The notes under the pieces were generated by a model, which saw only the letters and a program-made list of their open reading frames with translations, did not search any database and was not told the DNA's origin. Shown here piece by piece: positions 1 through 62,407 of a stretch of DNA of 64,000 nucleotides. The stretch spans positions 35,058 to 99,057 of the IMG/VR virus record IMGVR_UViG_3300045988_051354; one strand, 5' to 3'. The DNA comes from a virus. Made by a program: the position numbers and the translations under genes. Numbering within the stretch: position 1 is the first letter of the stretch; the number at the start of each line of letters is the position of its first letter.

Positions 1-246
1 ATTCCTGGAATCAAAGGTCTTTATATAGTACCTCTCTAATTCCCCAAGCTTCTTAAAGTCGTCAGTATTATCTATCTCTTCTATAGTAAAGTTCTCAAGA
101 CCGTATTTACGCATAGACCTATATAAGTGTCTATCACACACTCTACTGTCTCTTATGTGACCTCTCCATCTTGCTTCTAGTGTAACTGTAGTTAAACCTA
201 TATACACCTTGCCGTTAATACTGTTAGTAATTTTATAGATAATCAT
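1..246 (-). CDS. GIY-YIG homing endonuclease (N-terminal part; the gene continues past the window start)
   Basis: Reverse complement from 246 gives MIIYKITNSINGKVYIGLTTVTLEARWRGHIRDSRVCDRHLYRSMRKYGLENF..., with GIY and YIG motifs and the conserved R/E/N. In frame to position 1 with no stop. Not in the ORF track because it runs off the window. Confidence 0.7.
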   Translation of the reverse strand, partial: MIIYKITNSINGKVYIGLTTVTLEARWRGHIRDSRVCDRHLYRSMRKYGLENFTIEEIDNTDDFKKLGELERYYIKTFDSRN

Positions 247-384
247 TATATTGATAATTTCTACAAATTTACTAATTTAAATGGAGATGTGCAACTCATA
301 CATCATAATTAATTTCCCACGGGATTACCATACATCTAGTCTCACGACTCAAGCTTCAGGCTTCCCCGTTAGCATAGTTAATTA

Positions 385-1188
385 CTATACCCGTCTGGTT
401 AGACGCAAAGATATAACAGGCGATTGTTCACCATCGAGATACTTGATATAATCTTTACCATGTAGTTTAAATTTATCAAGTATAGTCAAGGAAGTATCTT
501 CTACAGCATAAAAGTAACTATTGTAGCAATCTCTTGGTACAAAGTAACCTGCCTTCCTGTCCCACATAGCATGTTTAACTCCCAGGTTCTCCGCTGGGAC
601 GAACTCACAGTTAAACATCAACTCCTTAGTTCTAGCTTTACGATTTTCATCGCTAATAGTTTTAAGGATAGATTGCATAAATTCTCTGTAAGTAGGGTTA
701 TCATTAACTGGAATTCCTAAGAACTCAGCAGCTTCGATAACTCCATTAACACCTACAGTTAAATACTGTTTCTTCATATGAATGAATCCAGCAGAATAGA
801 CAGTTAGTAAACCATCATTTAAATAGTCTTTGAGTAATTCATTATATGCAGTTTGATATTTATGAACTTTCTGAACGTTTTCACGTAAATACTCAATCAT
901 ATCGTATCCGTTATTAACTGCATCTTGAACTAATCTATTAATATTTAAAGTCATTACAGATTTACTACCAGTAGCAATACCACCAGCTCCAAGAGAATAA
1001 CTAAATTGATTATCAGTTACTTCATTGCGAAGTCTACAACAACTTGACAGACTATCTGCTGAATCAGACATATAAGTAAAGAATGAGTGTCCCTTACTAT
1101 ACATCTCTGCTGTAAAGTCTGCCCATTCTTTATCTACTACATCCTCTCCATCAGTAAGAAGTGCTACAGTTTCCCACATATGTTCCAT
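385..1188 (-). CDS. nrdD: Anaerobic ribonucleoside-triphosphate reductase NrdD, internal exon (catalytic core with CC-R-L-R cysteine motif)
   Basis: The LSSCCRLRNE motif is typical of the class III RNR active site. The ORF ends ...LTRRV at a TAG-TAA double stop, exactly where the glycyl-radical motif RVCGY would continue. The last exon must therefore lie beyond the window. Exon borders are approximate. Confidence 0.7.
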   Translation of the reverse strand: MEHMWETVALLTDGEDVVDKEWADFTAEMYSKGHSFFTYMSDSADSLSSCCRLRNEVTDNQFSYSLGAGGIATGSKSVMTLNINRLVQDAVNNGYDMIEYLRENVQKVHKYQTAYNELLKDYLNDGLLTVYSAGFIHMKKQYLTVGVNGVIEAAEFLGIPVNDNPTYREFMQSILKTISDENRKARTKELMFNCEFVPAENLGVKHAMWDRKAGYFVPRDCYNSYFYAVEDTSLTILDKFKLHGKDYIKYLDGEQSPVISLRLTRRV

Positions 1189-1297
1189 ATAGTTCGCTAC
1201 ACTATATGCGTTCTCTTATGAACTGCTGTATGTCACCATACAGGTCAGACTATATCACAATCCTATTAGGATTCTCCCCATTTCCACTGTCAATAGC

Positions 1298-1873
1298 TTA
1301 CAGTGTACTCTCTTTCGAGATAGTCGTTGAACTTTCATTACAGAACTCAAATGTATATCCATGATACAACCTATTAGCATTGATAGCTTTATGTAACCCT
1401 TCCACACAAGATGGCTTACCTATAAGGCGTACTGCTTCACTCATAGATTTATATATAGTATCATTCTCTATACATCTGACTGCCTTTGGAGCAGTCTTCC
1501 CCTTCATAGACTTACCAAGTACATCTACAGAGTGTCTTTCATTCTCTGACTGTGTGCACCATTCTAGGTTCTCTACACAGTTATTAGAACGATTGCCATC
1601 TATATGATTAACGTAAGGTTTGTTGTCAGGATTTGGTATGTACGTCTCAGCTACAAGCCTATGACACATATATCTTTTCTTAACACCTTCTTTCATTAAC
1701 ACAATCCTACTGTAACCATCTTGCATAACCTCTACTTTAAGTGATTTGCCAGGATAATTACGAGTTCCAGATTGCTTATACTTGATAATTCTATCTTTAC
1801 TTCTAAAGTTACCTAAAGTACTTACTTCAAAGTACCCTTCATAGTTAGGGATTTCTTTCCAAATTTCTTCCAT
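1298..1873 (-). CDS. HNH homing endonuclease (NUMOD4-like N-terminus) inside the nrdD intervening sequence
   Basis: EIWKEIPNYEGYFEVSTLGNFRS is a NUMOD4-like motif. HIDGNRSNNCVENLEWCTQSEN is an HNH motif. The gene sits between two nrdD coding blocks. Confidence 0.8.
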   Translation of the reverse strand: MEEIWKEIPNYEGYFEVSTLGNFRSKDRIIKYKQSGTRNYPGKSLKVEVMQDGYSRIVLMKEGVKKRYMCHRLVAETYIPNPDNKPYVNHIDGNRSNNCVENLEWCTQSENERHSVDVLGKSMKGKTAPKAVRCIENDTIYKSMSEAVRLIGKPSCVEGLHKAINANRLYHGYTFEFCNESSTTISKESTL

Positions 1874-2014
1874 AATGCTTAGCTGCTGATTGTCTTAATA
1901 CTAATTATTAAGTGCAAAGATAATGTAATTTACTTACATTTCCTAACTTTCTACCATTAATTAATGTTAAGATGTCCCAGCAATTAGAGGAGTTGTTCGA
2001 GATAGATTACTCTA

Positions 2015-3064
2015 TCAAGCTGCGAAATTCACAGGGAACGTTAATATGCACTTAGTCCTCTCCTCGTTAAACCAAGTCATAAACTTCTTCTGTAACCAGT
2101 TCAAAGAATCCCATATGGGCTTAGTTCCATCTGGGAATACAAACTCACCAAATAAACCTTCAAAGTAATTCTTATCAAAATAACTGATATTCCAGAATAC
2201 TGATTGGAAGTTACGAGCAGCTGCTGGTTGATTGATTGAATATACAATCTGTTGGAACTTCTGTTCAATAGTCTTATCAATATTTCTATGTTTATCAACC
2301 ATCTCTTCTGGACGTTTCCAATAATCATCACCCCATTCTTTACGAGCGAAGTAATCGAAATACATTAGGAACTCACCAGTAGCTACTGCTCCAGCGAATT
2401 GTGAGCTGATAGCAAATACCAGATTAACAAACATACCGCAGAAGGAGTCCAGATTCTTAGGCTTGGCAGACAAACCTCCAATTGGCTGTAGCCCTTCAAG
2501 TAGGAACGGATACATAGTGATAGCCACGCAGTAGGGCATAATTGATGTTTCATCATGCTTGTAAAGTTCATGAGATTCCAGTTGTCTAATATACTCCTTA
2601 GCTAAATCTTCACCATATAACTGCCTAATTTTATCTGTAAGGATTGCTCTATTAACTTTAATTACATCACCCTTAAACAACTCTCCATTTAAAGTTACTA
2701 TATTCTTCTCAGTAACATTGGCATTAGCATCATATTTACTACCTGTAGCAGCATTAGATGCTTTGGCATAATCTTTAATAAACTGCTTCTTCCCAGCTAA
2801 TGCTCTGAGTTCAGCTTGTTTATGTCGATACAAAATGAATGCTTTAGCGACATCATAGTAATCACAAGCCATCAAAGCCTTTTCAATTTGATCTTGAAGC
2901 TCTTCTACTGATACTATGTTGTTAATATACAATTCATCTTTAATATCATCCAAAATATCGGAATCAATTGGTTCGTTAACAGCATTGAACGCCTTAGTAA
3001 TAGCCGCGTCAATCTTATTAATATCGAAAGGTTCTACTCTCTTATTTCTTTTAATTACTAACAT
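2015..3064 (-). CDS. nrdD: Anaerobic ribonucleotide reductase NrdD, N-terminal exon (ATP-cone + start of catalytic domain)
   Basis: MLVIKRNKRVEPFDINKIDAAI is ATP-cone-like. It ends ...KCILTFPVNFAA at a TGA and is then interrupted by 826 bp containing the HNH ORF. Confidence 0.7.
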   Translation of the reverse strand: MLVIKRNKRVEPFDINKIDAAITKAFNAVNEPIDSDILDDIKDELYINNIVSVEELQDQIEKALMACDYYDVAKAFILYRHKQAELRALAGKKQFIKDYAKASNAATGSKYDANANVTEKNIVTLNGELFKGDVIKVNRAILTDKIRQLYGEDLAKEYIRQLESHELYKHDETSIMPYCVAITMYPFLLEGLQPIGGLSAKPKNLDSFCGMFVNLVFAISSQFAGAVATGEFLMYFDYFARKEWGDDYWKRPEEMVDKHRNIDKTIEQKFQQIVYSINQPAAARNFQSVFWNISYFDKNYFEGLFGEFVFPDGTKPIWDSLNWLQKKFMTWFNEERTKCILTFPVNFAA

Positions 3065-3069
3065 TCAAT

Positions 3070-3849
3070 TTAGAAGTTTAATATGTTTCTTAGTAATAGA
3101 GTCTTCTCTGCTCTATTCATCAAATCTTTGCCCTTGTCATTACTAATTAACTGAGTAAATGCATTATACACAGTAAACATATCCACCTCATTACCCTCTC
3201 CTATATAATAGCTAGAATCAGGGTCTTCAAACATAGAACCATAAGCCTTAACAACAAGGTCTGTTCCTATCTTTACGTCTCCATACCCACCATTATAGGT
3301 CATAGATATAGCGTTTCTAACCCATCTACCTAGATTAGAGTCTATATTACTTGGAGTTCCTTCCCATGTAGTATTATGTAAGGTGTCCAACATCAATTTA
3401 ATATCACTGGTTTGTGATAAAAGGTGTTCAACAGCTTTATAATTGATGGGCTTCTCAGACTCTAAGTTCTGAACTTGCAAGAACTCTGGGTCAAAGACAC
3501 ATAAGTTTGTACATGCTCTATTAAGAGCGCCTCTATAAATCTTAGCTACTGGTTTACGGACATCTAATCCATATACCATACCAATAACTTCATCGTGATT
3601 ATCTATTCTGCAATTCTCTGGCATTACAGCTTGAATAAGTACACGATTATAAGTGATATCATCTGCATTAACCTCTCCATCTGCTGTTCTAGTAACTTGC
3701 TTAGGGAGTTCTGCTTCCACTATAAAGTTACTAGTAAACTTATACATTCTTTCTAGAAAGGGTTCTACATAAGCAGCCGTAGGGAAGTAATTACGCTTCC
3801 CTATTCTGGTTGCTTTACCATTTAACAGTTGATCAATCGTCAGTTGCAT
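3070..3849 (-). CDS. hypothetical protein
   Basis: 259-aa ORF. Starts right after the nrdD exon. Fits the minus-strand gene array. Confidence 0.55.
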   Translation of the reverse strand: MQLTIDQLLNGKATRIGKRNYFPTAAYVEPFLERMYKFTSNFIVEAELPKQVTRTADGEVNADDITYNRVLIQAVMPENCRIDNHDEVIGMVYGLDVRKPVAKIYRGALNRACTNLCVFDPEFLQVQNLESEKPINYKAVEHLLSQTSDIKLMLDTLHNTTWEGTPSNIDSNLGRWVRNAISMTYNGGYGDVKIGTDLVVKAYGSMFEDPDSSYYIGEGNEVDMFTVYNAFTQLISNDKGKDLMNRAEKTLLLRNILNF

Positions 3850-4502
3850 TATACACAGTACAATATCGGCTTTGGTAATTCTAGTAATCTAGCAGCATAA
3901 TATACAGCTCTTAATGGATTTGCACCATTACCGTCAATAGGCATAGTGTTAGAACTAAAATAACCAACACCATACCTTTTGGCAATATTGTACAACCTCA
4001 CTAATAACTCAGTAGATTGGCCCTTTGTTGGATCAATTTCATTTGACAAGAGCTGATTTAGCAAATACTTCAGAGCTTCTCTGCAAGTAGCTCTGGTATC
4101 ATCACCATTAAATGTATGATTGTCTATCATAATTGTTCGCACAGTAACTCCACAAAATGCCTTCTCAGCATACTTTACCTCACCATTCTCCATTTCAATA
4201 GGAGTTCCTATTAATCCCTGCACAGGATGAACAGGCTTCTCTACATCTCTATCATTAATGGTTATCTTACCGGAATTTAGTTGCTTTGAGGCTTTAGAAA
4301 TCATACTATCTTTAACAATAGTAGGAAGATCATCTATGTTAGTTTGGCCAGTTACTCTGAATCCAACAGCTGGTAAATTACTCATAAGATTATCCTCTGC
4401 TCGTCGAAAGTCTAGTTTACTTTGTTCTAACGCCTTAAAAGCATTTACATAGTCATCACAATTAGCTCTAAGAGCTATTACATCATCAATAGTTAAAGTC
4501 AT
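3849..4502 (-). CDS. hypothetical protein
   Basis: 217-aa ORF. Its ATG overlaps the stop of the next gene. Confidence 0.55.
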   Translation of the reverse strand: MTLTIDDVIALRANCDDYVNAFKALEQSKLDFRRAEDNLMSNLPAVGFRVTGQTNIDDLPTIVKDSMISKASKQLNSGKITINDRDVEKPVHPVQGLIGTPIEMENGEVKYAEKAFCGVTVRTIMIDNHTFNGDDTRATCREALKYLLNQLLSNEIDPTKGQSTELLVRLYNIAKRYGVGYFSSNTMPIDGNGANPLRAVYYAARLLELPKPILYCV

Positions 4503-8604: not shown

Positions 8605-9100
8605 ATTGCTTCATAAATAGATAAGCATCGATTATCTCAGTTCTATTTAGTGAGAATACCTTGAACATAGGGAAGTCAACAGTTCTGTCTGTATGATACA
8701 GTAGTGCTGGCACCCCAGAACGTTGACATTTGATTACATTACTTAAAGAATCATCAATAAAGACATCCACTTTACCTTTAATCATATCAGCTTTGTTACC
8801 ATGCTGGTATACCATTTGATAAATTGGTCTGTCAGGAAATCCATTCCTCCTGAGCCATTCTCTAGTCCATGCCTTATTATTGACTCTCTTAGTACAATAC
8901 AGCTCTGGAATAAAGTCAGGTCTATTAATAACTGGGAGATTTAACCAGAAATCTCTCTCCTTACTAAGGATCTGTTGTACATTCCTAGTAATTATATGGT
9001 CTTTAAGCATGTGAGGATTATTAGCTGTATCAAAACGCTCACAATAAGCATCCCAAAACCCAGCCAAACAATCATCTATATCTAATCCTATTCTGAACAT
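8597..9100 (-). CDS. 5'(3')-deoxyribonucleotidase, HAD superfamily
   Basis: N-terminal GLDIDDCL is the DxDxT/V HAD motif I. Size and layout match NT5C-type phage dNMP nucleotidases. Confidence 0.65.
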   Translation of the reverse strand: MFRIGLDIDDCLAGFWDAYCERFDTANNPHMLKDHIITRNVQQILSKERDFWLNLPVINRPDFIPELYCTKRVNNKAWTREWLRRNGFPDRPIYQMVYQHGNKADMIKGKVDVFIDDSLSNVIKCQRSGVPALLYHTDRTVDFPMFKVFSLNRTEIIDAYLFMKQYA

Positions 9101-9122
9101 TCAATAGCATCTTGTTATGATT

Positions 9123-9344
9123 CTAGAATTCTTCTATATCATAGATGTCACCAATAATTATCTCTCTGTCTCTTGACATGATTACCCCTAGTTCTTCATA
9201 ATCTCCAGGTAGATCAATATCATAATCTTCAACGAACAAGTTTATGAACTTGTCTTCAGCTTCTGTGAAGCTTCTAGCTCTCACTTTCTCTAACCACAAG
9301 TCTCCATTATTAAGACCATAACATGGTAGAATGTAAGTACTCAT
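9123..9344 (-). CDS. hypothetical small protein
   Basis: 73-aa ORF. Confidence 0.4.
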   Translation of the reverse strand: MSTYILPCYGLNNGDLWLEKVRARSFTEAEDKFINLFVEDYDIDLPGDYEELGVIMSRDREIIIGDIYDIEEF

Positions 9345-9453
9345 TTATTTAGTTTAAAATTTTAAGGCAATATAGAACTTCATAAGACAAATCAAAGCCG
9401 TAGGTAAGTCTTACTTCAGTTAAAGTGTCTTCATAAATTTCAACCATCTCTTA

Positions 9454-9843
9454 CTAAGACTTCTTAATAAGTTCGTAAAAGAAATCTTTACTCATCATAA
9501 CGTATTCTCCATCAGAGCCCATATTCACACCTTTATCAACTTGTTTATTCCAGACTATTACTAATGGTCTGTCTTTACGTCCACAAGTTTTGATGATTTC
9601 AGCAATAGATGGAGTATTCTTAGTACATTTGCATTGAACATAACAAGGTAATTTGTCCTCGGTTTCTGCAATATCAATCTTAGCATCATCCAAATTCTTA
9701 GATTCACTACGAGACGATTTCAATCCTTTATAACCGAGTTCAATTAATTCCTTAATAATTTTAAGTTCATAATTATTACCCTTACGTTTAGCATAAGCAC
9801 CGTTACGTTTCTTCTTTGGTTTTACTTCTTCAGTACCTTCCAT
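9454..9843 (-). CDS. small PD-(D/E)xK-like (Hjc/VSR-like) nuclease; same family as ORFs 40022 and 46740
   Basis: GNNYELKIIKELIELGY...DDAKIDI...YVQCK fits the shared pattern G..E......L...G...D.I....QxK seen in the three paralogues. Confidence 0.45.
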   Translation of the reverse strand: MEGTEEVKPKKKRNGAYAKRKGNNYELKIIKELIELGYKGLKSSRSESKNLDDAKIDIAETEDKLPCYVQCKCTKNTPSIAEIIKTCGRKDRPLVIVWNKQVDKGVNMGSDGEYVMMSKDFFYELIKKS

Positions 9844-10823
9844 GCTTCGTTAATTAAGTTAAGTGTTGCATCTCTACCATATTTAGCATGAAAGTCGGAT
9901 ATATCCTTAGCTCCATAAGATCTAGGAATCCATAGGCATTCTACTCCAAATTGCTTCCTTATCCGATTCATATTATGAATTCCAGCTAAGTCATTGTCAT
10001 AGAACACTACTATCTTCTTAAATCTCTTGCTGAGTTTCTCAAACTGAGATTCAGTTATGAATAGATTCTCAGAATTAGGAGCTATTGCAGTAATCCCTAA
10101 AGAATATAAGCACATTACATCCTTCATACTTTTAGTAATTACTAACAAATTACCTTCTGCTGGGAGTTGATGAGCTCCTTGCAACATGATAGCCTTCCAA
10201 TTAGAAAGGAATCTTGTAGTTCCTTTGTCCCTAAATGGAAAGTATATACGCCATAACTCAATGCCTTTATCGTTTTTACCTCGATAATAGCCGAATATGG
10301 GGTTCTGAGAACCAGTAGTAGCATAATAATTCCCATTCAGGAATACAGTTTTACATGAGTACACTCTAAATTTCTTTAGAATATCCTTAGTAATTCCATA
10401 TCTATGCCACCATTCCAGCTCTTTATCAGTGAATTCCTGTATTTCAGCCCGTATAACAGCAGGTCCCTTGTCTTTAAACTCAGTACTACTAATTACTGGC
10501 TTACTACCTTTAGGCAACGTCTTGTGTTTGATATAACCAAAATCATTAGCAATGATTTGTAAAGCCTTATAATAAGAGCAGCTATACTTATACATTACTA
10601 CACTGATAAAATTGCCATAAAATTGTCCACTGAAATCATTGAAGATGATATCCCCAGACGCATTCCTATAAAAGGAACACGTAGGAGAGTTATCATTTCT
10701 CAACGGAGATTTAAACAGTCCCTTCTTTACTGGGATACCAAGATAATACTCAAGATATGTCTCCTGAGATTGCCTTTCAAGTAAATACTTCTTAGTAATT
10801 TTAGGTTCATACTCTAATACCAT
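9822..10823 (-). CDS. DnaG-like DNA primase (zinc-binding domain + TOPRIM)
   Basis: SPLRNDNSPTCSF resembles the DnaG zinc-ribbon motif CPFHxExTPSF. VVFYDNDLAG is the TOPRIM DxD motif. Confidence 0.7.
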   Translation of the reverse strand: MVLEYEPKITKKYLLERQSQETYLEYYLGIPVKKGLFKSPLRNDNSPTCSFYRNASGDIIFNDFSGQFYGNFISVVMYKYSCSYYKALQIIANDFGYIKHKTLPKGSKPVISSTEFKDKGPAVIRAEIQEFTDKELEWWHRYGITKDILKKFRVYSCKTVFLNGNYYATTGSQNPIFGYYRGKNDKGIELWRIYFPFRDKGTTRFLSNWKAIMLQGAHQLPAEGNLLVITKSMKDVMCLYSLGITAIAPNSENLFITESQFEKLSKRFKKIVVFYDNDLAGIHNMNRIRKQFGVECLWIPRSYGAKDISDFHAKYGRDATLNLINEAWKVLKK

Positions 10824-10870
10824 ATTGATTCGATACTTAATGTTAGAACCTTAAAGTTACTAATTATTTC

Positions 10871-11554
10871 TTATACATCAAAGTCAAGGTCTGAATTAGC
10901 TGATGCAGCGTCTCCTGCTACCCCAAAATCATCAGAACTTGTTCCCGGCATATCTGTAGGACCGTTACTCTTCTGTTTATTCATCTGATTAGTTTCGTAA
11001 TCAGAGAAGAAGACCTTATCACCCAACCAGTTATTAGAGATATAAGCATCACCTGCTTTACTAATATTAACGAAGTATGGCAAACAAGGTTCACCCTTCT
11101 TATTAGCAATCAGTTTCAGTTTAGTCTGCTTATTAACAGCGTCCTTGGTAATCTCAATAAAAGTCTTAGCTAGCTTCTCAAATTCATCGGGAAGCGCAAA
11201 GGTCATAGATTTAAACTTCTCATATTTCTTAGGAGATAGTTGTTCTCCAACATGAGCTAACATAAACTTAAACTTCTCCAAATTAGACGGATTCTCACGT
11301 TCTACCCCACCATTAGAGGTTACTGGTCTCACATCATCACCTTCTTTAGGACAGAATATAGTCTCTTCATATACTCCATTCTCATTCTCAAACGAAATCT
11401 TCATGGTCTTCCAAGTAGTACTTGGGTCTTTCTTACCAGCGAATTCGCTATAAGTTACACCCTTAAAGAGTACAGTATGGATTTCCCAAGGTTTCAGTCT
11501 AGGTTTGATTGATGATGTACCGTTAGTGTTGGATAAGTTGAAATTCATTGACAT
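10871..11554 (-). CDS. hypothetical protein with acidic C-terminal tail (possible single-strand DNA-binding protein)
   Basis: Ends ...SDLDFDV. Sits between the primase and the Sak4-like ATPase. The SSB assignment is weak. Confidence 0.35.
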   Translation of the reverse strand: MSMNFNLSNTNGTSSIKPRLKPWEIHTVLFKGVTYSEFAGKKDPSTTWKTMKISFENENGVYEETIFCPKEGDDVRPVTSNGGVERENPSNLEKFKFMLAHVGEQLSPKKYEKFKSMTFALPDEFEKLAKTFIEITKDAVNKQTKLKLIANKKGEPCLPYFVNISKAGDAYISNNWLGDKVFFSDYETNQMNKQKSNGPTDMPGTSSDDFGVAGDAASANSDLDFDV

Positions 11555-11569
11555 AGTTCTAATAGAATA

Positions 11570-12124
11570 TTAAAGTTCGAAAGTTAATGGGTCAATCTCT
11601 TTAGCTGACTCATCTTCAATCTCTGTGTCTAGTGGCAAATCTACATTGTCAAAATCTTCCTTAACTTCTATGTTATCTACTTCAGGTTCTATAGGTCTGT
11701 CAGCATTACCAACTAATACAAACAAATCATCATAGCCCTTCATTTTAGTTACTGTAAATGTATCTCCATACTGTCTTAATAACTCATTGGATTTACCTCT
11801 ACAGCTTACAGATAGACCTTTAGTAAGCTTATTACCACCTTTGGTACCAAAAGCTTCATCAGTACCAATAATTGGGAATGTTACTCCTTCAATCTTCTGG
11901 TAATTAATACTAATTCTATCTCCCCAGGCAGCACCTATCATAGCAGCAGCTGCCTTATTAAGTATATACTTATTGGAATCTAATGTTACTTGAGGTTCCG
12001 CTGTATCTTCAACCTCTACCGCAACCTTCTTGGTAGGTTCCTCCTTGACTATCTCCTGCTTCAGAGATTTATATTCTCCAGTAGCAGGATCAAAGTCTAG
12101 GGTTAATAGCATTTTAACTATCAT
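11570..12124 (-). CDS. hypothetical acidic protein
   Basis: 184 aa. Acidic C-terminus EIDPLTFEL. Confidence 0.45.
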   Translation of the reverse strand: MIVKMLLTLDFDPATGEYKSLKQEIVKEEPTKKVAVEVEDTAEPQVTLDSNKYILNKAAAAMIGAAWGDRISINYQKIEGVTFPIIGTDEAFGTKGGNKLTKGLSVSCRGKSNELLRQYGDTFTVTKMKGYDDLFVLVGNADRPIEPEVDNIEVKEDFDNVDLPLDTEIEDESAKEIDPLTFEL

Positions 12125-12813
12125 TCTCCTAATTCAAACTTATTAATTGTATCAATAACCATCTTCATATTAGGTTCGATATATAAGTCAGAGAAACATC
12201 CAGCAGTACTTCTACAAGTATCAGGACCTAAGGATTTAGTTCTGAATTTATACGTAACTTCCTCATCATTAACTATCTTCTCCGCATAGAGCAAATAATT
12301 AAACAGTCCATCAATATTAACACTTCTGTCCAACATCTTACCGGTGGTGAAGAGTTTGTATTTAGGATCATAATCGTTACCATCATTCACAATATGTGAT
12401 ATGAAGATTACGATTAAATCGTCTCGAAGAGTCATTGCCTTAAGAATTAAGTCATAATAATGCTTTGCAAAGTCAATATGCTTATCATATCCTTTCTCGG
12501 CACTTCTAGACATTACTTCTTGAGAGAGAAGATAATTACTATCATCAATAGCTAAGACTTTAATCTCCGGCAGTTTAACATTAACTACGTTCATAATATT
12601 CATTACCTTAGCAAATTCATTACTAAAATACCAGTTACCAACGTAATTCTTGTCCTTATCCTGAGTTAACTTCTTATAATTCTTTCTAAATCCTGGAATA
12701 GATAATTGTTTTGGAGTACAACTAATAATAAACGTTTCTTTAGGATTCAGATATTGCAGCGAACTAGACTTACCACTACCTGAAAATCCTCCAAGTCCTA
12801 TAATTTGGCTCAT
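12121..12813 (-). CDS. Sak4-like / RecA-fold ssDNA-annealing ATPase (AAA_24-like)
   Basis: Walker A GLGGFSGSGKSS near the N-terminus. About 230 aa, in a replication/recombination module. Confidence 0.6.
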   Translation of the reverse strand: MSQIIGLGGFSGSGKSSSLQYLNPKETFIISCTPKQLSIPGFRKNYKKLTQDKDKNYVGNWYFSNEFAKVMNIMNVVNVKLPEIKVLAIDDSNYLLSQEVMSRSAEKGYDKHIDFAKHYYDLILKAMTLRDDLIVIFISHIVNDGNDYDPKYKLFTTGKMLDRSVNIDGLFNYLLYAEKIVNDEEVTYKFRTKSLGPDTCRSTAGCFSDLYIEPNMKMVIDTINKFELGE

Positions 12814-49612: not shown

Positions 49613-49615
49613 AAG

Positions 49616-49687
49616 TGCTCCATACAGGATTCAAACCTGTGACACGTAGGTTTAGGGTCTACTGTTCTATCGCTGAACTAATGGAGC
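49616..49687 (-). tRNA. candidate suppressor tRNA, anticodon CUA (reads UAG), with C33 and an A31-C39 mismatch
   Basis: GCTCCAT-TA-GTTC-AGCGATA-GAAC-A-GTAGA-CCCTAAA-CCTAC-GTGTC-ACAGG-TTTGAAT-CCTGT-ATGGAGC-A. The acceptor, D-arm and T-arm are perfect. The anticodon triplet CUA sits at 34-36 of a 7-nt loop. Confidence 0.5.
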
Positions 49688-53547: not shown

Positions 53548-53908
53548 CTTGTAAAATTAAATTAGCAGGTTAATCTGAGAGTTCTTTATTCTAATTGATA
53601 AAATGGGACACATAGACATTGAGCCAGCTTAATACAACTCGCTACTTACACACTACATGCCCCATATCAAATGAGGAAAGAGGTTCACTTGATGACCTAT
53701 CTACGTGCTGATTATAACGTAGACCGTGCAGATTCTCTCTCACACAATACTATGATGGACTCAAACCATCTCCACCCCTAGGTGAACTTTCCGTTATTCG
53801 AATAGTACAGGTTTCAACTCTTTATAACGCCTTTAAGTCAAAGTATACTCCGGAATATACTCTTAGTTCATCAGACCAAGTTTGCGCTTAGAATTATCTA
53901 AGATTAAG

Positions 53909-60912: not shown

Positions 60913-60987
60913 GTGAACCAGAGTAGATTCGAACTACTAACCTTTCTCTAGATGAGAATGTTCTTCCGGAAATTGAACTACTGGTTC
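60913..60987 (-). tRNA. tRNA-like element with non-canonical anticodon arm
   Basis: GAACCAG-TA-GTTC-[11-nt loop]-GAAC-A-TTCTC-ATCTA-GAGAA-AGGTT-AGTAG-TTCGAAT-CTACT-CTGGTTC-A. The acceptor, D-arm and T-arm are perfect. The anticodon arm is 5 bp with a 5-nt loop, or 4 bp with a 7-nt loop CATCTAG. Confidence 0.4.
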
Positions 60988-62407
60988 TAGCCCAAGCCTA
61001 TTTCACAACAAACTTGGGTTAAAGTAAATAACAACTTTATATATTATGATACACTTATTTGCATTTTACACCTAAAACTTAGAATCTTGCATGCAACTGC
61101 AATCTATTACATTTGTCTGACAAGGACAAACAACTAAGAAACTGGTGCCCTCAATGTCTTGGGATGTTATTGAGTTTTTTAAAAGTCCTTATAATCCTCT
61201 CTTTTAAGATAACTTAGAACTTTAGGTCTAGACTTGTACTTCGTCTATCCAAGTTTGTACTGTGCGAATACTTCGGATTATAGAGTGTATAGCACAATCC
61301 TCTAAAGTTTAGAGTATACACAATCTTTTGGGACTTTGTTATACTATTCTTGCCCAGGGAGTAGCGTAAACCGTCATATTAAACCGACATGTATCAATCC
61401 ACGGCCCCTTGATACTGGATCTACATTATTAGTAACGAATATAGTGCCTGTCTTTCCAGGCTGTCACCAAACTTATAAATCGGAATTGGTTTCCTGTACG
61501 GTTTATCCTTAAACTTTTAAGTGCGTTACTAGTAAACCGCCTAAAAGATACAGCACTACTGGTTTAAACTACCCTACCAGCAAGTAAAGCTCGTCTTTCC
61601 GAGCCGCCATGCTATCCCTTGTGTCACAGTACTCGCAACATACCATAACAGAACGTTCCTTTAGCCGATTACCCACACACCCCTACGTACAATGGTGGAA
61701 CGCAGCTTTCGCTACGATTAACAACTCTAGCTTTCTTCCCCTTCTTGGTTCTCCGTCATTACGGTTTGTATTATTGAAAGCGTGGAGGAATGGTCCTCAC
61801 ATTACTACTTAAAGCAATGTGGTTTTACCATTATTTACTCACAAATACATTTTCTTTGTGAGTCTATCATAGCTCTTGTACGCATTACTCGGCAGAGGAG
61901 CCTTACCGAAACCTACAATGTAGGACGCTGTTTAAAACTTAAAAATTAATATAATTAAAACAATCATGTGGACTCCTGCTTTAACGCATGAAGCAGGAAC
62001 GTTTAACTTTTGGCACTACATACATTATGTCCGTTTTGTGATGTAGGGATTCTAAGTATTTGCAACTACTCAGAAGAGCTAAACCAGGTTGCCTATCCTT
62101 TACAGCGATAGGCGTTCTGTTTATTTATAACTGCATCCAACAATTACCATGCCAAGCAAATTCTGCATCACCGATTCTCATTCTCCACTCAGAACCATCA
62201 TCAGTATAGAATTCATATTGTCTTCTGAAAGCTTCTTCACTTGAAATTGTTGTTGTATGTCCGTCTGACCAAATTATCTTATCCATAATTGTATATGTAA
62301 CTAACCTTTACGTTACGAGGTTTTAAATTGTTAATCAGACTCCTGCATATAGCAGAAGTTTCGTCCAGTCTCATCAGTGATTATTTTATAGACTCCTGGT
62401 TGTCTTA

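Follow-up and report, generated by a model that had tools for sequence, protein, structure and literature searches.

The window, by which we mean the whole 64-kb stretch of phage DNA that was analyzed, very probably carries one functional class III ribonucleotide reductase (RNR) gene, nrdD, that is interrupted by two mobile IA2-type group I introns. An initial annotation, made from the letters of the window alone, had proposed a single nrdD split by two insertions with HNH and GIY-YIG homing endonucleases, and this was borne out by the Pfam domains and by collinearity with the uninterrupted homologue in MT835470.1. The gene belongs to the replication module of a phage from the human gut. IMG/VR contigs of this phage are clustered near 185 kb, and two sister contigs of the window are 362 and 382 kb.

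Architecture of the split nrdD gene

All parts of the gene lie on the minus strand. Exon 1 (2031..3064) covers codons 1-344 and the first two nucleotides of codon 345, encodes the ATP-cone and an N-terminal portion of NRDD (Pfam E-values of 8e-23 and 3e-34, respectively), and ends in ...ILTFPV with a U at position -1. As annotated, the corresponding ORF (2015-3064) holds both domains and terminates in ...TFPVNFAA before a TGA; its "NFAA" (2030-2018) is intron 1 sequence. Exon 2 (430..1174) extends from the last nt of codon 345 to codon 593 (ETVALL...SSCCRLRN...KYLDG), includes the active-site Cys loop (Pfam NRDD, 1.6e-34) and also has a U at -1. The ORF (385-1188) holds the middle of NRDD, including SSCCRLRN, and finishes ...LTRRV before TAG TAA as described, and here too its edges differ from those of the exon, in that the initial "MEHMW" (1188-1175) belongs to intron 1.

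The last exon was expected to lie beyond position 1 and to encode the glycyl-radical domain. It was indeed found in three sister contigs (L004, L006, and L008), which share 99.6-99.7% identity with the window across 11.9 kb; the descriptions of exon 3, the nrdG-like gene and the 3′ half of intron 2 are taken from these near-identical contigs, outside the window. In L006 (99.7% identical), the exons occupy 8810-9843, 10700-11444, and 12502-12789, with intron 2 at 11445-12501. When joined, they give 2067 nt encoding 688 aa, without a frame break or internal stop, and the spliced NrdD is identical to the uninterrupted NrdD of MT835470.1 at 639 of the 688 residues (92.9%). Exon 1 is collinear with that homologue, and the exon ends agree with it to the nucleotide. 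The predicted ligated junctions are ...CCUGU|GGAAAC... (exons 1-2) and ...GAUGGU|GGUAGC... (exons 2-3); in DNA, the predicted junctions are ACGTTCCCTGT-GGAAACTGTAGC for intron 1 and TATCT[C/T]GATGGT-GGTAGCGCCCTC for intron 2. Both insertion sites fall in highly conserved motifs, TFPV|E (intron 1) and LDG|G (intron 2), in keeping with the original proposal that conserved positions are interrupted.

One part of that proposal was wrong, namely that the second break sits exactly at the glycyl-radical motif. Break 2 separates codons 593 and 594 (YLDG|GSALH): homology to MT835470.1 stops at ...KYLDG (window position 430) and restarts at GSALHMNLDE in exon 3, where the radical glycine, G664 (ATRVIGYL, with the RVIGY motif), is found 71 residues downstream of the break. 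The "LTRRV" that had been taken as the lead-in to the radical motif is misleading, since "RRV" is a chance reading of intron 2. It belongs to 14 codons, EQSPVISLRLTRRV (window 429-388), that are intron 2 RNA (the 3′ strand of P1, P3, and the first hairpin) read in frame.

Features of the spliced protein include the ATP-cone, SSCCRLRN, a Zn ribbon (CNDCG...CPKCG), and ATRVIGYL, the last two being encoded by exon 3 of the sister contigs. A search for nrdG beyond the window, which had been recommended, located a 191-aa nrdG-like gene directly downstream of exon 3 in the sister contigs. A CxxxCxxC motif is present in the 193-aa homologue from MT835470.1, whereas the window-type product gives only a weak Fer4_12 match. 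Together, the spliced product and its nrdG-like neighbor fit the catalytic subunit of a class III RNR, NrdD. There is no second copy of nrdD within the 64-kb window (of a genome that is probably near 185 kb).

Group I identity of both introns

On structural grounds, both insertions are assigned to the group I introns and appear IA2-like. In each, the P3-P8 and P4-P6 domains of the conserved core are present, together with the pseudoknot of P3 and P7 and the J8/7-P7 motif. Both introns also have, between P7 and P3′, the covarying hairpins P7.1 and P7.2 that are characteristic of subgroup IA. They share a GACUA...GAUAUAGUC core element; P7 itself is invariant. A U at -1 and a terminal G are found in both introns and, beyond these, in all four intron types in 29 loci. 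The structures behind the covariation counts given below were derived partly from the same sequences; in slid controls, 33-47% of cells were paired. Self-splicing of both introns is a prediction from their structure.

At the gathering threshold, an Rfam search of the whole window gave no intron match, because ORFs of 576 and 783 nt in P6 break the model. The scan with group I covariance models suggested in the initial annotation thus had a mixed outcome: permissive or truncated matches were obtained in both introns, and both scored below the gathering threshold.

Intron 1 and its HNH endonuclease

Intron 1 (type A1; 1175..2030, minus strand) is 856 nt long, starts GAAUUUCGCAG and finishes ...CAUAUGUG, with the omega G at 1175. 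In P1, CUGU|G (2034-2030) pairs with CGCAG (2024-2020), and P10, identified by inspection, joins GGAA (1174-1171) with UUUC (2027-2024). P3 is formed by 1992-1987 with 1279-1274, and P7 by 1325-1321 with 1252-1248. The intron matched Rfam Intron_gpI with 29.2 bits (E 9e-5) in a permissive search, which is under the 50-bit gathering score because the ORF breaks the model; its ORF-less homologues score 87-110 bits, above the threshold. The 3′ core matches 724 phage records, including the orf142 introns of Twort. Compensatory changes were observed in 21 of 39 pairs, a count that was reached by none of 500 shuffles, and the fold of the ORF-deleted intron reproduces P2-P9.2 (z = -3.4). P1 also tracks the exon, being CUGU/GCAG here and CCGU/GCGG in the Lak-B1 megaphage, where intron 1 with a homologous HNH occupies the same TFPV|E codon of nrdD.

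The 191-aa ORF in the P6 loop (1298..1873, minus strand) had been read as an HNH endonuclease. Pfam recognizes NUMOD4 (3.9e-13) and HNH_3 (5.1e-10) in it, and residues 5-175 match I-HmuI (PDB 1U3E) with an E-value of 1e-14, which points to an I-HmuI-like HNH homing endonuclease. The ORF is interwoven with the ribozyme: the AUG is part of the P6 stem (CAUUAUGGAA/UUCUGUAAUG), the final ~17 codons run through P6′, J6/7, P7, and P7.1, and the stop is in the P7.2 loop. In the assembly collection, 1455 indexed blocks contain an identical HNH protein.

Intron 2 and its GIY-YIG endonuclease

Of intron 2 (type C; 1..429, minus strand), the window holds the first 429 nt; the intron runs past position 1 and is 1057 nt long in L006. 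P1 consists of GGU|GA (432-428) with UCGCC (423-419), the 5′ strand of P3 is 414-409, P4 pairs 369-364 with 324-319, and P6 begins at 318. P7-P9 and the omega G lie beyond window position 1, the omega G being L006 12501, and a 3-bp P10 (GGU/AUC) was identified by inspection. Between P3 and P4 are two additional hairpins (405-392 and 391-371), a pair that, to our knowledge, does not feature in standard group I diagrams.

The 3′ half aligns to Rfam Intron_gpI positions 133-253 with 19 bits (E 0.004; threshold 50 bits), and Rfam gave no match for the 5′ half. A blastn search with the 3′ core found no relatives among 50,697 phage records, and relatives were instead located by searching IMG/VR with the GIY-YIG protein. 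In these, intron 2 and GIY-YIG interrupt nrdD at DG|G as well, and the nrdD genes are only 44-52% identical. The structure is a hand model that was tested by pair counts: once L107 and L108, two divergent copies, were included, 99.3% of cells were paired and 23 of 74 pairs were compensatory (0/500 shuffles), P3 being underlain by a single compensatory event. P1 of L108 was misaligned by MAFFT, and P1 covariation was therefore read by eye; it tracks its partner (GGU|GA-UCGCC, GGU|AG-CUGCC, GGU|GG-CCGCC). RNAalifold, applied to the ORF-deleted intron, returned a long helix that is not of group I type (a 13-bp pairing of nt 12-22 with J8/7-P7′). We rejected this fold, as the P3/P7 pseudoknot cannot be modeled by the program.

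Also in the P6 loop are the N-terminal 82 codons of the endonuclease ORF (1..246, minus strand), which encodes 260 aa in the sister contigs. Its reading as a GIY-YIG gene, here truncated at the window edge after the N-terminal part, was confirmed by Pfam (GIY-YIG, 4e-10 for the window part and 5.6e-9 for the full protein). The protein resembles the catalytic domain of I-TevI (PDB 1MK0; E 2e-5), and no recognized domain was found in residues ~95-260.

Selection, polymorphism, and mobility

At a dS of ~1.2, dN/dS is 0.044 for exon 1, 0.045 for exon 2, and 0.036 for exon 3, which indicates that the nrdD exons are under purifying selection and that the gene is functional. Introns occur in 23 of 78 IMG/VR relatives, in eight combinations. 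Four intron types were found, located at CDS nt 1032, 1034, 1614, and 1779, and a relative with introns has either one or two of them; introns A1 and A2, whose positions are 2 nt apart, were never seen together in one allele. One relative with intron C, L038, is 99.8% identical to the intron-less L009 over nt 1-1500, and it has donor-type alleles at ~nt 1590-1803, around the intron C site at nt 1779. This co-conversion tract is biased to the upstream side, and an upstream bias in co-conversion has been described for I-TevI (PMC2988022). The two hallmarks of mobile introns, presence/absence polymorphism at identical sites and flanking co-conversion, were thus both observed, and they indicate that the introns are real and still spreading between phages.

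The same intron/endonuclease cassettes are found at the same codons in the window phage, in Lak megaphages, and in a phage with a 282-kb contig. At least four nrdD sites are used within the window lineage, and further breaks occur elsewhere in the nrdD genes of Lak, a Desulfovibrio phage, and T4. We lean modestly toward the idea that the IA2 introns form an endonuclease-bearing pool that moves among unrelated gut phage lineages with nrdD as a common landing pad, and that intron 2 is a structural variant of IA2 in which P3 and P4 have two additional conserved hairpins between them. Since the same cassettes are present in unrelated phages, these phages presumably co-infect shared hosts.

Alternative explanations for the split gene

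Split yet functional phage RNR genes have been documented (PMC3653736), and nrdD could likewise have been divided by free-standing endonuclease genes into three polypeptides that assemble into an active enzyme, as with nrdA-a/nrdA-b (mobE) of Aeh1, the last piece perhaps serving as a detached glycyl-radical "spare part" domain. Gene callers annotate proteins of 349, 267, and 90 aa, and in all three blocks the ORF has an ATG in frame close to its beginning (at 1188 in block 2, and at L006 12517 in the last, where the product has 90 aa). However, the spacers hold whole group I cores that covary and are accompanied by U(-1), omega G, and P1/P10, and the exon ends fit the uninterrupted homologue to the nucleotide. 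Moreover, the block 2 ATG is inside P9.2 of intron 1, and the first five codons that it opens are not NrdD-homologous, and a start at the ATG of block 3 would remove the conserved GSALH. We therefore consider three separate polypeptides very improbable. We attach scarcely any weight to the idea that the blocks are remnants of an nrdD destroyed by the insertion of endonuclease genes. There are stops after each block, and with 64 kb visible of a genome probably near 185 kb, an intact nrdD could sit outside the window, but dN/dS is ~0.04 in every exon at a dS of ~1.2, no frameshifts or internal stops are left once the introns are removed, and an intact nrdG-like gene follows. The architecture is also constant in six independent assemblies, and the HNH protein recurs in the 1455 collection blocks mentioned above. 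Inteins, spliced at the protein level, have been reported in phage nrdD, nrdA, and nrdE (PMC3653736); they, too, insert at conserved RNR motifs and encode homing endonucleases. Here, they are practically excluded by the reading frames and stops: a TGA follows exon 1 and TAG TAA the exon 2 read-through, the exons are in three frames (+2, +3, and +1 in L006), and each endonuclease ORF has a start and a stop of its own. The Pfam matches are limited to NUMOD4/HNH_3 and GIY-YIG, and neither a Hint nor an intein domain is among them. The initial preference for introns over inteins is upheld by these same observations and by the group I cores in both insertions. Recoding of TAG was rejected as an explanation of the stops, given that exon 1 ends in TGA and the exon 2 read-through in TAG TAA; reading TAG as sense within the window brought no ORF gain.

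A further alternative accepts splicing of intron 1 and supposes that intron 2 is crippled or helper-dependent, so that full-length NrdD is rare or conditional. Several properties of intron 2 are compatible with this, including its weak Rfam match (19 bits for the 3′ half and none for the 5′ half), a 3′ core without blastn relatives among the 50,697 phage records, the additional hairpins between P3 and P4, and the 13-bp alternative pairing of nt 12-22 with J8/7-P7′. In other gut phages, splicing reads were absent before a 91-aa last nrdD fragment (PMC12880540), which may or may not concern the same intron. Against it, all 74 modeled pairs are kept (23 of them compensatory) across copies in nrdD genes only 44-52% identical, and strong purifying selection acts on exon 3 (dN/dS 0.036), which is not expected if exon 3 is rarely joined to the other exons. 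We consider a crippled intron 2 unlikely, and retain the reading in which both introns are spliced.

Proposed splicing and homing

In the pathway that we propose, the nrdD exons and introns would be transcribed as a single precursor, in which each intron would fold into a ribozyme (P1-P9 plus P7.1/P7.2) and excise itself via the usual guanosine-initiated, two-step transesterification. Joining of the exons would create the 688-aa ORF, to which exon 3 would contribute the Zn ribbon and the glycyl-radical loop (RVIGY, G664). Translation of the HNH protein and folding of the ribozyme might be mutually exclusive, because the AUG is buried in P6 and both ORFs read into P7/P7.1. Comparative data point to homing, whereby each enzyme would cut or nick the intron-less nrdD of co-infecting phages at TFPV|E or LDG|G, and recombinational repair would copy the intron together with adjacent exon sequence into the recipient allele.

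What gene callers report as three "NRDD fragments" and two "endonucleases" are very probably one functional gene in a common gut phage, and the exact splice junctions permit nrdD to be annotated correctly. The locus is also a natural data set on homing, with four intron types, four sites, eight combinations, and a visible co-conversion tract. It leaves what is known of group I introns and RNR unchanged.

Comparison with known systems

Introns in phage nrdD have been known since T4, and gut phages with a multiply interrupted nrdD were published in 2025-26. The kind of element is long familiar from T4 nrdD, Twort, crAss-like, and Jug phages, and the window locus adds a member. The nrdD (sunY) intron of T4 resides in the same host gene and is likewise an IA2 intron with P7.1/P7.2, whose J8/7-P7′ element, AAGAUAUAGUC, is near-identical to that of intron 1, UGAUAUAGUC. 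It encodes the GIY-YIG enzyme I-TevII, is mobile, and is variably present among relatives (PMC2988022). However, T4 has one intron and the window nrdD two, and mapping onto the NRDD profile placed the T4 site at Pfam position 145/146, equivalent to residue ~276 here, whereas the window introns are at 345 and 593; identity of either site with the sunY site was therefore rejected. I-TevII is downstream of P9 in T4, in contrast to both window ORFs, which are in the P6 loop, and the window GIY-YIG protein has no detectable similarity to T4 I-TevII and was rejected as its orthologue.

The orf142 introns of Twort (I2/I3) are sequence homologues of the intron 1 core. P7, P7.1, P7.2, P8, and P9 align and covary, and the 5′ half (P2, P3, J3/4, P4, and P6) is also alignable. 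These are experimentally self-splicing IA2 introns, ORF-less and ~250 nt long (97-101 bits in Rfam), that interrupt a structural gene and not nrdD. I-HmuI of the SPO1 DNA polymerase intron is, like the intron 1 ORF product, an HNH enzyme with NUMOD modules in a phage group I intron, but the host gene and target site differ. I-HmuI nicks one strand. The T4 td intron resembles intron 2 in the GIY-YIG catalytic domain of I-TevI and in upstream-exon-biased co-conversion, and the I-TevI ORF is also in the P6 region; the host gene differs, and no match was detected for the C-terminal region (~95-260) of the window-type protein.

The Jug and crAss-like phages share the human gut habitat with the window phage, and the DNA polymerase intron of crAss-like cr53_1 is a homologue of intron 1. 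In the Jug/crAss-like study, nrdD was fragmented in 95 of 104 genomes, and gene fragmentation was attributed to group I introns and HNH/GIY-YIG genes; some junctions were confirmed by metatranscriptome reads, and gut jumbo phages yielded no splicing reads across the junction before the 91-aa last nrdD fragment (PMC12880540). The 362- and 382-kb sister contigs raised the possibility that the window is itself from a "Jug" jumbo phage, but we do not think so. It has ~36% GC and two tRNA(CUA) genes, and its IMG/VR contigs are clustered near 185 kb, whereas Jug phages have 27-30% GC, genomes of 360-402 kb, and no sign of an alternative genetic code (PMC12880540), and the differences in GC and tRNA(CUA) make a different phage lineage probable. 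Finally, nrdA of Aeromonas phage Aeh1 is another RNR gene that is split by a homing endonuclease gene (mobE) and has kept its function. There, no intron is involved and the halves are translated separately, whereas in the window nrdD complete ribozyme cores flank the endonuclease ORFs.

Organization of the split nrdD gene

Four minus-strand ORFs encode, respectively, an ATP-cone with the N-terminal part of NRDD (2015-3064), NUMOD4 and HNH_3 domains (1298-1873), the middle part of NRDD (385-1188), and a GIY-YIG domain running past the window start (1-246). Given this domain content, the nrdD coding blocks and both endonucleases described in the initial annotation are real. The surrounding genes form a replication and repair module, with exonucleases, a primase, and two helicases, one of them DnaB-like.

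A megablast match from human faeces, MT835470.1 (83% identical to the window), spans window positions 448-3728 in just 2.4 kb of its own sequence. Its NrdD is an unbroken reading frame of 688 aa, with a 193-aa nrdG-like radical-SAM gene and then a helicase downstream. This NrdD contains ILTFPVETMALL and, further on, QYLDGGSALHMNLDE...ATRVIGYLKR, and we therefore place the end of homology in the first coding block at TFPV, while the second is homologous from ETVALL through YLDG. The rest of the second insertion, the last exon, and the nrdG-like gene fall beyond the window edge and were taken from three sister contigs (L004, L006, and L008), which are 99.6-99.7% identical to it across 11.9 kb and reach beyond position 1. 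There, the GIY-YIG ORF is completed (260 aa) and, after a non-coding RNA stretch of ~90 nt, comes an exon for GSALHMNLDE...CNDCG...CPKCG...ATRVIGYLKR; beyond it are a 191-aa nrdG-like gene and a helicase. Extension thus supplied the downstream exon predicted in the initial annotation, and an nrdG-like gene.

On the minus strand, exon 1 occupies 3064-2031, intron 1 2030-1175 (856 nt), and exon 2 1174-430, with intron 2 running from 429 to beyond window position 1 (1057 nt in L006). Junction 1 falls within codon 345 and junction 2 between codons 593 and 594. Joining L006 positions 8810-9843, 10700-11444, and 12502-12789 gives 2067 nt encoding 688 aa in an unbroken frame, with 639 of the 688 residues identical to the uninterrupted MT835470.1 protein. 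Within RVIGY, the radical glycine is residue 664 and lies 71 residues beyond junction 2, and so the break "exactly at the glycyl-radical motif", the detail that had made this locus look special, was misplaced; EQSPVISLRLTRRV, read at the time as the end of exon 2, is intron RNA translated in frame.

Identification of the insertions as group I introns

Had nrdD been a decaying pseudogene, its exons would not be expected to be conserved as they are: relative to the intron-less allele L009, dN/dS is 0.044, 0.045, and 0.036 for exons 1, 2, and 3 (dS 0.6-1.4), which rules this explanation out. No second nrdD was found within the 64-kb window. The initial annotation was right to favour introns over inteins. 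Both insertions have U/G splice sites, P1/P10 pairing, and covarying group I cores. We conclude from the sequences that both are group I introns, predicted to be spliced. In each, the 5′ exon ends in U and the intron in G, the same being true of every intron in 29 related loci.

By inspection, P1 of intron 1 pairs CUGU|G with CGCAG, and GGAA of exon 2 pairs with UUUC as P10. In the group I covariance-model scan, intron 1 matched Rfam Intron_gpI (29.2 bits, E 9e-5) at a score under the 50-bit threshold, owing to the 576-nt ORF in P6; homologues without an ORF score 87-110 bits. The 171-nt 3′ core has matches in 724 phage records, among them Twort (its self-splicing orf142 introns), T-even, Staphylococcus, and Bacillus phages, and crAss-like cr53_1, whose DNA polymerase gene it splits. 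The 5′ half is alignable with Twort, C. difficile-phage, and Lak introns, and the minimum free energy fold of the ORF-deleted intron contains P2, P3, P4, P5, P6, P7.1, P7.2, P8, P9, P9.1, and P9.2 (z = -3.4). In an eight-sequence alignment, the 3′-half model (P7/P7.1/P7.2/P8/P9/P9.1/P9.2) has 94% of cells paired, against 33-47% for slid partners, and compensatory changes in 21 of 39 pairs, a level reached by 0 of 500 shuffles; this model, like that of intron 2, was drawn in part from the sequences on which it was tested.

For intron 2, P1 pairs GGU|GA with UCGCC (by inspection), and the 3′ half matches Intron_gpI model positions 133-253 (19 bits, E 0.004). A blastn search of the phage collection with the 3′ core of this intron returned no relatives. 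A search with the GIY-YIG protein identified divergent intron copies, inserted at this same DG|G codon of two loci, L107 and L108, whose nrdD genes are only 52% and 44% identical, respectively. Across eight ORF-deleted sequences, a model with P3, two extra hairpins, P4, P5, P5a, P5b, P6, P7, P7.1, P7.2, P8, and P9 has 99.3% of cells paired (35-47% in slid controls), and 23 of its 74 pairs are compensatory (0 of 500 shuffles). P1 covaries as well, with UCGCC, CUGCC, and CCGCC matching GA, AG, and GG at +1/+2. P7 is invariant in the covariation alignments, and P3 of intron 2 is supported by a single compensatory event. The pair of hairpins separating P3 from P4 matched no element recognised in standard group I diagrams. 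Nucleotides 12-22 (UGUUAUAUCUU; window 418-408) are complementary to J8/7-P7′ (AAGAUAUAGUCA; L006 12462-12474), and RNAalifold favours this 13-bp helix over the catalytic fold; it may trap the RNA in a misfold or serve as a regulatory alternative.

Intron-encoded endonucleases

Over its whole length, the HNH protein of intron 1 matches I-HmuI (1U3E; E 1e-14), and the index of the assembly collection lists this exact protein for 1455 blocks. The GIY-YIG protein has a match to the catalytic domain of I-TevI (E 2e-5), and showed no similarity to T4 I-TevII. A 60% identical GIY-YIG relative occurs in the very distant nrdD (29% identity) of six IMG/VR contigs (L110-L115, 34-167 kb), inserted at a different position, after approximately residue 221 of this NrdD.

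Both ORFs reside inside the P6 loop and continue across P6′, J6/7, P7, and P7.1 before their stop codons. The HNH AUG lies within the P6 stem (CAUUAUGGAA/UUCUGUAAUG), whose pairing covaries with the Lak copy. Endonuclease translation would be expected to compete with ribozyme folding. In the Lak copy, the HNH stop precedes the intron core, suggesting that the C-terminal codons overlapping the core in this phage are probably incidental.

Intron polymorphism and mobility

Among 78 IMG/VR relatives, 23 carry introns and the other 55 show none. There are four types: A2, after CDS nt 1032 (994-1006 nt); A1, after nt 1034 (856 nt; intron 1); B, after nt 1614 at FVP|AE (960-962 nt); and C, after nt 1779 (1056-1059 nt; intron 2). 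Types A2 (L073, L075, L078, L081-L083, L085, and L086) and B (L044-L048, L050, L070, L081, and L084) are absent from the window, and have compact cores with the HNH ORF close to the 3′ end. The combinations observed are C, B, A2, A1+C, A2+C, A2+B, A1+B, and B+C; A2 and A1, whose sites are 2 nt apart with A2 upstream, never occur together in these relatives.

L038, which carries type C, shares 99.8% identity with intron-less L009 across nt 1-1500 and 98.6% across nt 1851-2064, with window-type alleles spanning ~nt 1590 to 1803. This co-conversion tract is biased toward the upstream exon, as reported for I-TevI (PMC2988022).

Upstream of nrdD, a NUMOD1 endonuclease and a DUF723 protein replace a 217-aa ORF in the near-identical contigs L003, L005, and L007 (6070-8034; approximately window 3849-4502), and the dUTPase gene, intact in L004 and L006, is split in L005 (15642-17074) into 122 aa, a 231-aa HNH_3 ORF, and 61 aa. 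Both are further endonuclease or intron polymorphism near nrdD.

Other RNAs in the window

Twenty-five minus-strand tRNA genes lie between 23209 and 60987, two with the amber-suppressor anticodon CUA (49615-49687 and 60913-60987, the latter called by ARAGORN only). Reading TAG as sense gave no gain in ORF length within the 64-kb window, so any recoding would affect genes elsewhere in the genome. Adjoining the tRNA region on the same strand are a RAGATH-34 RNA (53804-53901; 86.9 bits) and a RAGATH-1 hammerhead ribozyme (62333-62406; 82.6 bits), both well over the Rfam thresholds.

Comparison with known systems

The split nrdD is genuine and well supported, and belongs to a known kind. Phage RNR genes with group I introns and homing endonucleases are classical, the prototype being T4 nrdD/I-TevII. 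The T4 intron site corresponds to Pfam NRDD profile position 145/146 (~residue 276 here), whereas both window introns lie elsewhere. In a published survey, no nucleotide-metabolism gene was interrupted more often than RNR, and among RNR genes nrdD was split most often (PMC3653736). Multiply split nrdD genes, with metatranscriptome backing for some junctions, were described in 2025-26 in the gut "Jug" jumbo phages (PMC12880540), a lineage set apart from this one by its GC content and by showing no indication of an alternative genetic code.

In nrdD of the Lak-B1 megaphage, the TFPV|E codon likewise holds intron 1 and its HNH gene, with an 80.5% identical core and a guide sequence that fits the Lak exon. 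In Lak megaphages (Lak-C1, L088; Lak-B1, L089), nrdD has between two and at least four breaks, and contains in-frame TAGs; the gene is broken twice, at SSCC|RL and VP|GE, in Desulfovibrio phage SRB7757 (L090), and once in another faecal phage (L091, MT835492.1). The breaks in these phages fall at SSCC|RL, VP|xE, and other motifs, and some of the sites are shared with the lineage studied here.
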